From an uncultured Hormoscilla sp. (GTDB lineage Bacteria; Cyanobacteriota; Cyanobacteriia; Cyanobacteriales; Desertifilaceae), in contig OZ001293.3 in the NCBI GenBank assembly GCA_963921275.4, positions 1,408,001 to 1,472,000 of the forward strand: DNA of 64,000 bases. Reading direction: 5' to 3'. The notes under the pieces are model-generated. The model was not told the DNA's origin and made no database searches. It saw only the letters and a program-made list of their open reading frames with translations. How positions within the stretch are numbered: position 1 is the stretch's first letter; the number at the start of each line of letters is the position of its first letter. Below are positions 20,161-28,449 of this stretch, piece after piece. The translations under genes and the position numbers were made by a program.

Positions 20161-20598
20161 CTGAATTTGCGGCCCTTTTAAGACACATGCAAATAGAGGA
20201 TATTCAAGTTAAAATTACTGAGGGAGTAGATAAGTTAAAAGCATTTGTGAAGCCCTTATGTAAATCTAGGAATTTTCTAAGAGGAAAATCCCTAGTAATA
20301 GTCCGGGATGCCGACGATAATACGGCTAATAGATTTACCAGCGTTTGTAATAGAGAAATGTAAATGTAGCGGTTATCTGGGCAAATTTGCCAGTTCCCAA
20401 GGAACAGATAAGGCCGACAGGCGATCGACCGCAAGTAAGCGTTCAATTCTGCCAGATACCACAAGTCCAGGAACGTTAGAAACGCTGTGCTTGCGAACGG
20501 TTAGCGAAGACTCCGTGATGAGTTGTATCGAGGAATATTTCGACTGCGTGCAGCAACGGGTGGCCAAACCGCCCAAAAGTAAGGATATGGATAAAGCT

Positions 20599-22297
20599 GT
20601 GCGATGAGTTCTAGCCTAACGTGTAAACACGGAACGCTAGCCTAGGAAACTAGGAACTCTGGTATTCATGGGGGTTAAATTCCCGTGCGATGAGTTCCAG
20701 CCTAACGTAGTCATATACGGAACGCTGGCCTAGGAAACTAGGAACTCTGGTAATCATGGGGGTTTAATTCCCCCTCCCCAGGTACAGGGGTAACCGCGTG
20801 AGGTGCTGCGAAGTAACATCATCGTGGTGCCAAGCGAGGACTCAAATGTAGGATAACTGGCAGCCCAAGCCGGTGACTCTGCTAGGAAAGATGTCCATGG
20901 CTAGAACAAGCGAACCTATGTAAACCTCGTTAAACCCAACCAGCGAAATAAGGCTTAATGCGCTGGAACAAAAGTTAATGCAGTTAGTGTTAATTAGGGA
21001 ATTGGCTAACATTGTACCCAAATAACTGCCGGGGAAAAGTAGGGGCCTAAAGGCATCGTGAAATGATACCAGGGAACGAAGTAACCTCAGCGAGGCTGTC
21101 CATTGGACAAGTTAGATGTAAAGCGCAAGCCCGCCGGGGAGGGATGTCCTAAGAAGCCAATGCCCAGGGTAATGCCTGTGGATATGCAGACGTAGGACGG
21201 ATATGGTAAGAAGCCTTGGGGAAAAGTAGCCGATCATGTCATAAACTCAAGGAGCAATCCTGAAGGATGAATGATGGACTAAAATCCTAGCCGGGTAAAA
21301 TTCAGTACCCCGAGTAAAAGTTAATGGGGAACATGTTAGCAAAGAGCGGCTAGTGTGGTTGGCTGGTTATCTCCCGCGAACCTTCCGGCGCTCGGTACTA
21401 TAACGGTCTGTTGACTGACCATAAGGGGCAAAATTTCATGGGGCAAGGGACAACGGGGGTAACCCCTAGTAATTCTGCTAATGACAAGAGCTTACCAACC
21501 AGTAGCCGTGTGCGATGAAAGTCGCTCTTCAGGTTCCGAAAGGGAGGGTTGGGAAGTGATTCCCAGCTCGACCCCGACCTCTCCCCAGGTACGGGGGGTC
21601 GAGGGTACTACCGGTCCTCACTGCTGCGGAATAACATCACCGTGGTGGCGAGCGAGGACTTAAATGTAGGATAGCTGGTAGCCTAAACTGGTGACTCCGC
21701 GCTTGTTAGACGCTCATGGTTAGAACAGGCAAATCTATGCAAGCCTCGTAAACATAAACCGGCGAAATAAGGCTATATGCGCCGGACCAAAATGGTGACG
21801 TAGTTAGTACTAACGGTAGCGATTCGTCTTTTTCGTACTCAGATAACTACCGGGGTATAGTAGGAACCTAAAAGCGTCGCCCTCCGGATACTAGGGAACG
21901 AAGTAACCTCTCGTGAGCTGTCCAATAGGACCAGTCAGATGTGAAGCGCAAGCCACGGGTGGGAAAGATGGCCTCAGAAGCTAATGCCCAGGGTAATGTC
22001 TGTGGATAGGCTGACGTCGGTCGGTGATAGTAGGAAGTCTCGGGCAAAAGTAGCTCTAAGTATGTTATAAGCCCGTCGCTGATGTGATAGCGAAAACTAG
22101 TCGGTGATTGAGGAATAAATTACTGGTAAAACACCAACCAGTAAAGGAGTCAAATCGCGTGAGACAAGGGACAACGGGAGTAATCCAAAAGTTACCGGCC
22201 ATTGACAACGGGCCTACTACCCAGTAGCCGGATGCGGTAAAGAGAGTCCGGTTCCGAACGGGAGGGTACCGAAGCGATTCCTAGGGAGACCCCTAAT
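20599..22297 (+). mobile_element. ORF-less group IIB intron I2a, outer member of a twintron (804 nt without the inner intron)
   Basis: 5' GTGCGATGAG; end GACCCCTAAT; removal gives in-frame GCT|AAA GTG; D5 degenerate (GCGGTAAAGAGAGTCCGG). Confidence 0.92.
20685..21579 (+). mobile_element. ORF-less group IIB intron I2b (895 nt), nested in domain I of I2a
   Basis: second GTGCGATGAG 86 nt into I2a; D5/D6 ending CTCGACCCCGACC; removal restores the family motif AATTCCC|TCTCCCCAGG. Confidence 0.93.
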
Positions 22298-22448
22298 AAA
22301 GTGAAGGTGTTTTTGGCTTCAAGAGAGGATCCGACATTACTGCTGGGACAAGCGGCTCAGCGTAAATACTGGAATTGGGATCGCCCAGCCCTCTCTCCAG
22401 TAAAATAATTTATACAAGCACTATAGATGAAAATCGAGTTAAAGTATC

Positions 22449-26631: not shown

Positions 26632-28449
26632 ATTAGGGGTCGAGCTGGAAATCGCTTTCCAACCCTCCCGTTCGGAACCGTGCATGCGACTTTCACCGCA
26701 CACGGCTACTGGGTATCAGGCCCAAATCATGGGTAGATAACTTTTGGATTACTCCCGTTGTCCCTTACTACTTGTATGTTTGCCCCTTTCCTGGTTAGTT
26801 ACCAGTGATTCATTCCTCGATCCGATGGCTCGCTTGCGCTATTGTTGCGAACGGGCTTATGACGTTTTAAGGCTACTTATACCAGTAGTTTCCTGATATC
26901 ACCGACCGACGTCAGCATATCCACAGGCATTACCCTGGGCATTAGCTTCTTAGGCCATCTCTCCCACTCGTGGCATACGCTTCACATCTGACTGGTCCTA
27001 TTGGACAGCTCACGAGGGGTTACTTCGTTCCCTGATATCATTTCACGAGGCTTTTAGGTCTCTCCTGTATACCGGCAGTCCTGAGCGGGTACGATATTAA
27101 TGAGTAAATAACATTAACTCAAGTTGCGACCTATAAAAATTGGATACAAAAAGCTATGATAAAGAGAATTATTTTCAACTCTAATCCCTTAGATGTAACA
27201 GCATGAATTGACTTGGGAAACAAATTGGTGATTCGACTAAAACAGGTTTCAACTTGTTTTCTTGTTACTTTTTGTATATATTCAAAACAAGAATATTCTT
27301 TTCTTTTTGAGTTCTTTTTTCGCAAAGGTTTTAACATTATACTTGACGACTCTTTTAGTAAATCCTCTAATTGATAATCATTATAAGCTTTATCTCCATA
27401 AACTATTGAATTTGATGGTAAGTCAAAGCCAAAAGATTGCAAAACTTTAACATCATTATAACTACCAGGATCTAGATAAAATTCTATTGGCTTTCCATTT
27501 TTGTTTACCAACATATGAACTCTTAATCCATAAAAATAACGTTTTTTACTGGCAATATACCCTCGATATTCTTCCTTGTTATAAATTTGGCATCTATCAA
27601 TCCTAATATTATCACATACTGGCACCGGGAAACTATCAAGAATATATTCTTGACCCGGATTGAGCTCTTTAAATGTTTGAGCTATAACTTGGAAGAAAAA
27701 CATCTAAATTGGTTCGTCAATATTGTGTAATCGACGATTGAACCTACTTTTACTTAACAGATTTTTTATATACTTGTGTTGGACCATAAATTGACAAGAG
27801 CGATCGTGGTGTCCTCCGAAAAAATATGCAGCAACTAATCCGACTGTCATCACTTCGGCATTGTTCATTTTTACTTGTGGATCTTCTTTTATATTTAACG
27901 CTTTTAGTAGCTCGTCACAAAGAACAAAAATTGTTGTAATCATATCTTCCATCATCTACATCCCCCAGCAATTAACTATTATTTTAGTACATTATAACCT
28001 ATAAACAGCCAACCCGCCGTCTAGCACAAAAAAAATATAATTTTGTATCAAAAGCTACGAAATATCCCAAATATCTGTAAAGTCTAAGTGGGTAATTCAT
28101 ATTTTTTTTAATAGGTCGCAACTTAGGTTAACATTAATACGCGAACTGCTTTCCCTTTTGGGCCAGCGTAATCAGCATTTTCGCTGGATGGTGTTGACGA
28201 TACTTACAGAGATTTGCTTGTTCTAACCATGAGCCTCTTTCCTAGCGGAGTCGCTGGCCTAGGCTGCCAGCTATCCTACATTTAAGTCCTCGCTCAGCAC
28301 CACGGCGATGTGCTCCGCAGCACCTCCGACCGGTGTCACCCCCGCACCTGGGGGAAGGGAATTTAACCCCTATGATGATCAGAGTTATCTGGCAAATGAA
28401 ACCAGACCAGACTTTCGCCATTGCTGGCTTACGCCCGAACGAATCGCAC
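26632..28449 (-). mobile_element. ORF-less group IIB intron I3 (798 nt without the IS), intergenic, interrupted by IS982
   Basis: minus-strand GTGCGATTCG start at 28449, canonical D5, end CTCGACCCCTAAT at 26632. Confidence 0.92.
27117..28128 (-). mobile_element. IS982 family element, transposase with one in-frame stop
   Basis: 18-bp IRs ACTCAAGTTGCGACCTAT / ACCTAAGTTGCGACCTAT; 8-bp TSD TAACATTA; DSFPVPVC, YFYG, GDKAY, RKQVET; ORFs 27704-27955 and 27131-27703 in the same frame. Confidence 0.92.

Follow-up and report, generated by a model that had tools for sequence, protein, structure and literature searches.

An ORF-less group II intron lineage that probably homes into a conserved domain I hairpin of sibling introns in a Hormoscilla genome

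The 64-kb window of DNA analysed here (C1:1408001-1472000 of the 7.03-Mb genome G000, from an uncultured Hormoscilla sp.; coordinates refer to the window unless they carry the prefix C1) contains a twintron, with a group II intron, I2b, nested in a related one, I2a. I2b is a IIB-like group II intron without an open reading frame (ORF) and with the 5' end GUGCGAU. We consider it probable, at about 0.85, that I2b is a copy of an ORF-less lineage that homes into a conserved hairpin in domain I of sibling introns. The observations behind this reading are the anatomy of the twintron, the complementarity between guide and target, near-identical inner introns at a homologous site in diverged hosts, intact relatives, and resident genes for intron-encoded proteins (IEPs). 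A first-pass annotation of this DNA had proposed a lineage specialised to home into sibling ribozymes, and the proposal was supported, with 13 of 14 lineage copies nested and the guides confirmed by covariation.

Introns were detected by BLAST and nhmmer searches with the twintron and then with profile models of the first 90 nt and the last 111 nt, followed by stack pairing of the ends. The 86-nt and 718-nt parts of I2a aligned across the junction with uninterrupted siblings, which read ATTCCC followed by TCTCCCC at the insertion site, in agreement with a +1 T at 21580. Both introns began with GTGCG (a GUGYG-type 5' end) at 20599 and 20685, a start shared by 378 of the 394 intron 5' ends detected in the genome. 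The 3' end of I2b was placed at 21579 (...CCCCGACC), which makes the last Y intronic and T21580 the +1 base, and the EBS3 (exon-binding site 3) column paired with the base after this corrected end in 95% of 87 unique sites. An end one base earlier (...GAC, with C at +1) was ruled out, as the next base was only C or T and tracked subfamily-specific intron positions. No ORF longer than 89 aa was found inside I2b. The class features present in I2b were the GUGYG 5' end, the pairings of EBS1 and EBS2 with the intron-binding sites IBS1 and IBS2, the EBS3-IBS3 pairing (a IIB trait) and alpha-alpha'. The family consensus ...CTCGACCCCGACY contains a candidate branch-point A 8 nt before the last base, as read from the consensus alone. 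The coordinates reported earlier for both GTGCG starts, the guides, the site carried by I2b itself and the +1 bases were all found in the sequence.

The guide sites were examined in an alignment of 196 unique sequences from 319 simple copies, in which variable loops stood out between conserved stems. Pairing was scored for one site per distinct EBS2/EBS1/EBS3 combination (n = 49 types) and compared with 1000 shuffles of the flanks. EBS1-IBS1 reached a mean of 5.27 of 6 pairs over the 49 EBS types, compared to a mean of 2.75 and a maximum of 3.27 in the shuffles. For EBS2-IBS2, the register of the first-pass annotation gave a mean of 4.12 of 6 pairs and the neighbouring registers 2.14 and 1.94 (shuffles: mean 2.37, maximum 2.98). 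EBS3 formed a Watson-Crick pair with the +1 base in 42 of the 49 types (shuffled fraction: mean 0.42, maximum 0.61). At these family positions I2b carries GGGAAT, AAACCC and A21037, and covariation thus bore out the positions claimed for all three guides. The claimed length of EBS2 did not stand. The position of A20932 was A in 49 of 49 types and paired with exon base -8 in only 9; as it is invariant and mostly unpaired, EBS2 comprises 5 nt (AACCC:GGGTT) and A20932 is a loop base outside the guide. The guides of I2b then paired with the I2a site at 6/6 (EBS1) and 5/5 (EBS2) positions. With a 5-nt EBS2, the reported contrast between a 5/6 match at the I2a site and a 12/12 match at I2b's own site was gone, because both sites match at 11/11 and the sole difference for the guide is the +1 base. 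Alpha (GGTACA) paired with alpha' (TGTACC), and compensating changes between subfamilies were seen by eye, without a statistic, in aligned slices (GGUACG/CGUACU, AGUGUG/CGCACU, GGUACA/UGUACC and GAUGCA/UGUAUC).

In the fold predicted from the alignment, 4-5 G-C pairs closed a 7-nt loop (GGGGG-UUNRAUU-CCCC), and a second hairpin came next. Covariation linked the loop of that second hairpin to the bases immediately 3' of the EBS1 stem, so this hairpin carries alpha. The predicted target is the small domain I hairpin directly 5' of the alpha hairpin, about 74-93 nt from the host 5' end, which may correspond to stem-loop IA of IIB introns. In I2a, the IBS2-IBS1 site is the 3' part of a hairpin with 5 bp and a 7-nt loop, and since the insertion point lies inside its 3' strand, domain I of the host is split. 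The +1 base is a stem position at which both C (G-C) and T (G.U) fit the hairpin. The 13-mer GGGTTnnATTCCC had 375 genomic copies, of which 351 held the canonical position relative to a detected 5' end of an intron; among the 24 others, about 10 looked non-intronic, and just one of those 10 had T at +1. The target is almost confined to introns and is common to about 330-375 siblings, nearly all group II introns of the genome. All seven paired introns of the window carried GGGTTnnATTCCC at 74-81 nt, as had been claimed for the ATTCCC site, with T at +1 in three (1762, 20599 and, on the minus strand, 28449) and C in four. The exact 19-letter pattern of the target hairpin occurred 327 times here, compared to 1, 10, 12 and 22 times in four congeners, whose genomes were 93-97% complete and in some cases fragmented.

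The hairpin (20670-20688; at about 70-90 nt in siblings) resembles the T arm of a tRNA in its 5-bp G-C stem and 7-nt UUNRAUU loop (variants UUAAAUU, UUAGAUU, UUCAAUU and UUUAAUU), and this is a resemblance only. Owing to this form, the junction pattern GGGTTNNATTCCCGTGCG matches tRNA genes across many phyla. It was found at no fewer than 117 loci in public genome contigs, spread over many phyla outside the cyanobacteria. Of the 117 listed matches, 66 were in tRNA genes called by ARAGORN, where they covered the T arm and acceptor strand, and the scan is uninformative about twintrons in other genomes. In this genome, GGGTTCGATTCCC is present in two tRNA genes, each with G at +1 and neither of them occupied.

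The census of the lineage covered every genomic match to the EBS1 context (12) and every junction of [AG]TTCC[CT] with GTGCG (27). Fourteen of the 27 junctions continued with the lineage 5' end, giving 14 lineage copies with a 5' junction. In answer to the check proposed in the first-pass annotation, 13 of these same-EBS relatives were at the same nested site, following GGGTTA[AG][AG]TTCCC at 86-93 nt into another group II intron. The fourteenth, C1:5978581, was in non-intron DNA after the look-alike site GGGCAAGATTCCT with G at +1, the kind of insertion that occasional retrotransposition would produce. At least four types of 5' end were represented among the twintron hosts. Both ends were resolved in seven twintrons, whose hosts were 62-84% identical in 19 of 21 pairs and 96.7% and 99.4% identical in the other two. 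The first 400 nt of the inner introns were 96-100% identical when six pairs with a copy carrying an insertion sequence (IS) were set aside (87.6-90%), and six copies of a 994-nt master form showed at least 99.3% identity over their length. Near-identical inner introns in hosts of 62-84% identity point to independent insertions, the same argument as that described by Mohr et al. (PMC2882425). Several near-identical inner copies are therefore present at one homologous site in diverged hosts, and this site lies within domain I, at a distance of 74-93 nt from the 5' end of the host, and not in domain IV or an intron ORF.

A filled and an empty site could be compared directly: host C1:6622023 reads GTTCCC, inner intron, TCTCCCCAGGCGCGGGGG, and its uninterrupted relative C1:1143255 reads ATTCCCTCTCCCCAGGCGCGGGGG. 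This host encodes an intact 592-aa protein with RVT_N, RVT_1, GIIM and HNH domains; at its 3' end, C1:6625801-6625993, domain V/VI was matched twice in succession (54.4 and 47.4 bits). The gathering score of RF00029, the curated Rfam model of domain V/VI, was reached (47.9-48 bits) by a 994-nt copy, by its host C1:1540259 and by the ectopic copy. In addition, a second, diverged inner lineage (EBS1 GAGAAT, EBS2 AAACC, EBS3 A) was found at the same hairpin at C1:5258757 and C1:1809083, which argues that the site specificity is not limited to one recent burst. This second lineage (C1:5258667-5261150 and C1:1808990-1809200) has the 5' end GTGCGATTCGTTCCGACG... and hosts of its own type; one copy contains an IS, the other is truncated, and one 3' junction shows the host sequence TTCCC on both sides. 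At C1:5193398-5195332, a 927-nt intron of another subfamily lies antisense in the lineage copy's own target hairpin, after GGGGGTTTAATG, which gives three nesting levels. In the four congeners, neither the EBS1 context nor the junction of the lineage was found with up to 2 mismatches allowed, and the best matches to its first 410 nt were about 80% identical. A scan of metagenome contigs for the EBS1 context gave one match, judged to be non-intron on reading.

In the proposed mechanism, one of the many protein-encoding introns of the genome would provide in trans the reverse transcriptase/maturase that binds the excised intron RNA, and 75 maturase-domain matches (PF08388, GIIM) are candidate sources. 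The RNA would then reverse splice into sibling intron DNA after ...GGGTTnnATTCCC, with T at +1 preferred, and copying into DNA would give a twintron in which domain I of the host ribozyme is split. We infer trans mobilisation, reverse splicing into DNA and cDNA synthesis from the established retrohoming pathway as summarised in PMC2882425; the inner intron would be spliced before the outer one, and the lineage may be active at present.

The claim that I2b's own site has C at +1 and the sites of I1, I2a and I3 have T agreed with the window sequence. Clean 3' junctions of occupied sites had T in 8 of 8 cases, and the unoccupied perfect sites among the detected 5' ends comprised 137 with T and 205 with C, giving Fisher p values from 0.0008 (8 versus 0) to 0.02 (6 independent events versus 1). 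C was the commonest +1 state in the whole family and was dominant too among the listed sites of the congeners. The pattern fits discrimination by EBS3, as a correlation only. The earlier suggestion that the +1 base possibly limits self-insertion held only as a correlation (8/8 T, and none of 205 C sites cleanly filled), but not as a feature specific to the parasite, as C is the family majority.

The window twintron itself is an old or damaged example, with a mosaic I2b, degenerate domain V/VI regions in both introns and a pseudogene as the interrupted gene. Positions 1-410 of I2b, which cover all three guides, were 100% identical to three 994-nt master copies, and for positions 411-895 no relative exceeded about 81%. 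The 754/757-nt forms likewise switch partner near position 402. At E<=1, RF00029 gave no match to domain V/VI of I2b or I2a; what Rfam recognised in the window was an rRNA operon and, in three places, domain V/VI of group II introns, none of it at the twintron. The AGC triad was seen by eye in domain V of both introns. The ...GTCGCTCTTCAGGTT variant of domain V in I2b (21504-21535) is shared with the 927-nt and 943-nt subfamilies genome-wide, which Rfam also misses. Since it occurs in multi-copy, near-identical subfamilies with good EBS/IBS pairing (14 copies of the 927-nt form), the variant may not abolish mobility. A second I2a+I2b pair at C1:1387439-1388000, 41 kb upstream, had a different 5' flank and was truncated on the 3' side. 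Its inner intron, C1:1387525, matches the first 177 nt of I2b; recombination has collapsed this pair through a deletion that fuses inner position 177 with the homologous position of the host. A similar inner/outer recombinant, C1:4515295, has its junction between inner position ~704 and host position ~327. Nested relatives thus decay here by recombining with each other, a process that PMC4424553 summarises for Methanosarcina. In four short-read DNA runs (three samples from one study), the contigs broke inside repeats and none spanned the twintron; loose contig ends reading ATTCCC followed by TCTCCCC were rejected as an empty allele because they derive from sibling introns.

Several points weigh against homing of this lineage into its siblings. 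All support comes from one genome, and the twintron is known from DNA sequence alone. Occupancy was low, at about 8-13 filled sites among roughly 150 perfect ones with T, and none of the 79 sites of the type GGGTTAGATTCCC with T at +1 was occupied, so homing would have to be inefficient, recent or otherwise restricted. The nested copy C1:5193398 has C after a disturbed junction, its host being shortened relative to the junction of a relative. The sites within subfamilies are non-independent and the Fisher p values therefore overstate the case for the +1 base. As domain V/VI was unrecognised in both I2b and I2a, this twintron may never splice, and as I2b is a mosaic, its present form may stem from recombination or gene conversion and not from one homing event. 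The only other I2a-type host (C1:1387525) is also occupied, which means that the pair may have spread as a composite or by duplication. As a rival explanation, one ancestral twintron could have multiplied as a whole, through either composite retromobility or segmental duplication, with the shared site reflecting common descent and not repeated homing. Composite mobility is among the routes named by Mohr et al. (PMC2882425), the I2a-type host occurs just twice (C1:1428599 and C1:1387439, with different 5' flanks and both with an inner intron), and the adjacent hosts C1:4581401 and C1:4584451 are 99.4% alike. However, these two hosts hold different inner introns (754 nt versus 994 nt plus an IS), one lineage copy is at a non-intron look-alike site, and the diversity of host types and identities contrasts with the 96-100% identity of the inner 5' 400 nt. 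This incongruence argues against unit amplification as the general cause, and we regard it as very improbable. An entry at the RNA level, by reverse splicing into a host transcript or lariat followed by copying and integration of the composite, is also unlikely. That group II introns can reverse splice into RNA is established, and the occupied I2a pair at two loci fits composite mobility. All 15 insertions are in sense orientation, although both routes require this. On the other hand, hosts with a degenerate domain V or in pseudogenes are still occupied and the ectopic copy is in non-intron DNA, and the sequence holds nothing that separates an RNA from a DNA route.

For the window copy only, I2b may not have arrived in its present form: an exchange with a 994-nt master, through recombination or gene conversion, may have replaced part of an older resident inner intron or of a composite's inner portion. 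The identity to the three masters that ends at position 410, the change of partner at about 402 in the 754/757-nt forms and the recombinants at C1:1387525 and C1:4515295 would all be accounted for, and we see overwriting as a real possibility that falls short of even odds. A chimeric RNA carrying the guides, all of which are in the first 353 nt, could equally home by itself, and no donor for the 3' half of I2b was found. The +1 base allows yet another explanation, in which the lineage's own C is evolved self-immunity and hosts with T or C differ in resistance, as parties to an arms race within the genome. The lineage's own type of site (GGGTTTAATTCCC with C at +1) was unoccupied in all 13 cases, clean insertions were found in 0 of 205 C sites compared to 8 of 145 T sites, EBS3 pairs with +1 in 42 of the 49 EBS types, and the stem position tolerates either base. 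However, two large subfamilies that expanded recently dominate these counts, which makes the sites non-independent. Moreover, as C is commonest in the family and in congeners without the lineage, it probably predates the parasite. Protection by C is at least as plausibly a by-product as an adaptation, and we find evolved self-immunity rather doubtful. A broader and tentative view, for which we would claim less than an even chance, is that the lineage is an obligate hyperparasite of its own superfamily. A T-arm-like core hairpin kept constant by selection in several hundred siblings would leave the hosts no easy escape, the +1 base, as its only free position, would act as a resistance or susceptibility allele and as self-protection of the parasite, and an insertion would silence the host until the parasite splices. 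The resulting ribozyme arms race would have arisen in just the one species of the genus whose targets number in the hundreds.

It is already established that group II introns can home into conserved sites within others of their class, as described in PMC2882425, PMC4424553 and PMC7049729. In T. elongatus, the F3 introns (TeI3a-e, i) insert in domain IV of the F1 introns (TeI4a-e) (Mohr, Ghanem & Lambowitz 2010, PMC2882425). According to that account, both systems are found in a cyanobacterium with an expanded family of related introns and both show near-identical ORF-less inner introns, one conserved site, diverged hosts and good EBS/IBS pairing. Its authors describe mobilisation in trans by resident IEPs, the idea applied here, and they also concluded from identical inner introns in diverged hosts that there were independent recent insertions (PMC2882425). 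In contrast to the arrangement described there, the site here lies in domain I, occurs in ORF-less as well as IEP-encoding siblings (about 330-375 copies) and is also found in the parasite's own sequence. The mobility of the F3 introns was demonstrated by experiment (PMC2882425), whereas the evidence for the present system is confined to sequence.

The Trichodesmium erythraeum twintron in Tery_4732 (Tr.e.I7/I8; Pfreundt & Hess 2015, PMC4649490) is likewise cyanobacterial, in a protein-coding gene and with the inner intron within domain I of the host. As described there, its host intron has the same 5' consensus GUGCGAUUC as here and an EBS3, the insertion site is adjacent to theta, and sequential splicing was demonstrated. 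Unlike here, it is a single case and not a lineage, and both introns have IEP ORFs (PMC4649490). The 'hypermobile', self-invading intron cox1i1149g2 of Lycopodiaceae mitochondria and the 'zombie' twintrons described with it (Zumkeller, Gerke & Knoop 2020, PMC7049729) also involve a family member placed in a relative, once in domain I of a host (sdh3i349g2). Decayed inner introns are described there as persisting as dead insertions, as I2b may. In contrast, that system is presented as organellar, with few events at varied sites, mostly in domain IV, and with no recurrent conserved target (PMC7049729). In a search of the literature that covered the papers in part, no lineage aimed at a conserved, family-wide hairpin of the domain I core was found, which means 'not found' and not 'not in print'. 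Thus, introns homing into introns were known, and what is new here is a target inside the ribozyme core that is common to about 330-375 siblings, together with the +1 polymorphism.

Introns of Methanosarcina acetivorans reportedly home into intron ORFs, to judge by the title of the original report. The nested group II introns of this species (Dai & Zimmerly 2003, as summarised in Zimmerly & Semper 2015, PMC4424553) have flanks without a functional host gene, like here, and the summary describes insertions offset by deletions through homologous recombination between copies, to which the recombinants at C1:1387525 and C1:4515295 correspond. The arrays summarised there are archaeal and up to five deep (PMC4424553), whereas nesting here is mostly single level and at a ribozyme hairpin.

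Homing of introns into introns has been invoked to explain how group II introns multiply without death of the host, as each new copy is a harmless landing site. The published bacterial and archaeal cases, as described in these sources, involve domain IV or an intron ORF, and here the site is a hairpin of the domain I core. The supply of targets therefore grows with the whole family and not with one subfamily, and because each insertion breaks the host ribozyme, the inner intron would be a true parasite of the outer one. As occupancy correlates with a single stem position, the system offers a natural, testable case of EBS3/IBS3 discrimination in vivo.

Table 1. Positions of the twintron, its parts and the interrupted gene in the window, and starts of nested inner introns in C1 coordinates
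Feature	Position	Strand	Remarks
Outer intron I2a	20599-22297	+	GTGCG start at 20599
I2a 5' segment, 86 nt	20599-20684	+	aligns with 5' ends of uninterrupted siblings
I2a 3' segment, 718 nt	21580-22297	+	+1 T first; no RF00029 match at E<=1
Inner intron I2b, 895 nt, ORF-less	20685-21579	+	GTGCG start, 86 nt into I2a
Target site in I2a	20672-20684	+	IBS2 GGGTT 20672-20676, spacer AA, IBS1 ATTCCC 20679-20684
I2b own target-hairpin copy GGGTTTAATTCCC	20760-20772	+	C at 20773 (+1); unoccupied
Alpha of I2b, GGTACA	20781-20786	+	pairs with alpha' TGTACC 21013-21018
EBS2 of I2b, AACCC	20933-20937	+	covariation with flanking exons
EBS1 of I2b, GGGAAT	20997-21002	+	covariation with flanking exons
EBS3 of I2b, A	21037	+	pairs with T21580
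Domain V of I2b	21504-21535	+	AGC triad; two lower-helix mismatches (...GTCGCTCTTCAGGTT variant)
Domain V of I2a	about 22226-22253	+	distal helix shortened; domain VI altered
5' exon, DUF3226-family gene remnant	20166-20598	+	three frames; two frameshifts between about 20351 and 20446
3' exon, C-terminal part of DUF3226 homologue	22298-22423	+	early stop 22406-22408
Nested inner starts, C1	371227, 1387525, 1428685 (window copy), 1540347, 2265897, 4515295, 4581308		
Nested inner starts, C1, continued	4584358, 5193398, 5243199, 5893755, 6223456, 6622111		

The gene interrupted by the twintron was compared with Pfam, and the 5' exon matched DUF3226 with an E value of 1e-5, under the family cut-off. 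A tblastn search with a 211-aa DUF3226 protein (P0001) recovered the 5' exon in three pieces, in frames 2, 1 and 3. The 5' exon ORF (20302-20598) and the 3' exon (22298-22408) were in phase, and the joined exons aligned without gaps to P0001 (MLKA-QVHTFLASRP compared to MDKA-KVKVFLASRE, the hyphen marking the exon junction). As the join of 20598 to 22298 is in frame and in register with the homologue, the outer boundaries of I2a are exact. The two frameshifts and the early stop make the host gene a pseudogene. The twintron is thus in a former protein-coding gene; in 2015, the Trichodesmium paper called a twintron in a protein-coding gene unique among bacteria (PMC4649490).

The genome contained 394 intron 5' ends and 442 3' ends, and at least 358 paired introns were found, mostly of 750-950 nt and ORF-less. 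These 358 paired introns, seven of them in the window, cover 325,857 bp, or 4.6% of the genome, and the largest subfamilies have 137 copies (871 nt) and 68 copies (835 nt). The intron load is well above the published maxima given in PMC8919778 (101) and PMC2853384 ('at least 150'). With this extreme load, the genome is a good system for studying intron proliferation and decay.

Some further arrangements were observed. The most abundant intron, of 871 nt, was found inside another 871-nt copy at offset 767-768, after ...CCTATTAAGTCT, with a total of exactly twice the unit. Five such doubles, each of 1741-1742 nt, were listed (C1:1325884-1327625, C1:4741852-4743593, C1:5180205-5181946, C1:6029574-6031315 and C1:6410256-6411996), and they represent either self-invasion or composite spread. 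The same IS of about 1 kb, with the ends ...CTAAGTTGCGACCTAT and ATAGGTCGCAACTT..., breaks three introns (26632-28449 on the minus strand of the window, C1:4582349-4584358 and C1:5258757 onward), with two of the insertions in the EBS1 stem-loop; the insertion in the window is flanked by the 9-bp duplication TTAATGTTA. Finally, an 834-nt intron of the family is apparently inserted in a tRNA gene at C1:4993854-4994687 on the minus strand, with a 5' flank that resembles a D arm plus anticodon stem and a 3' flank ending in GGTTCGAACCC.

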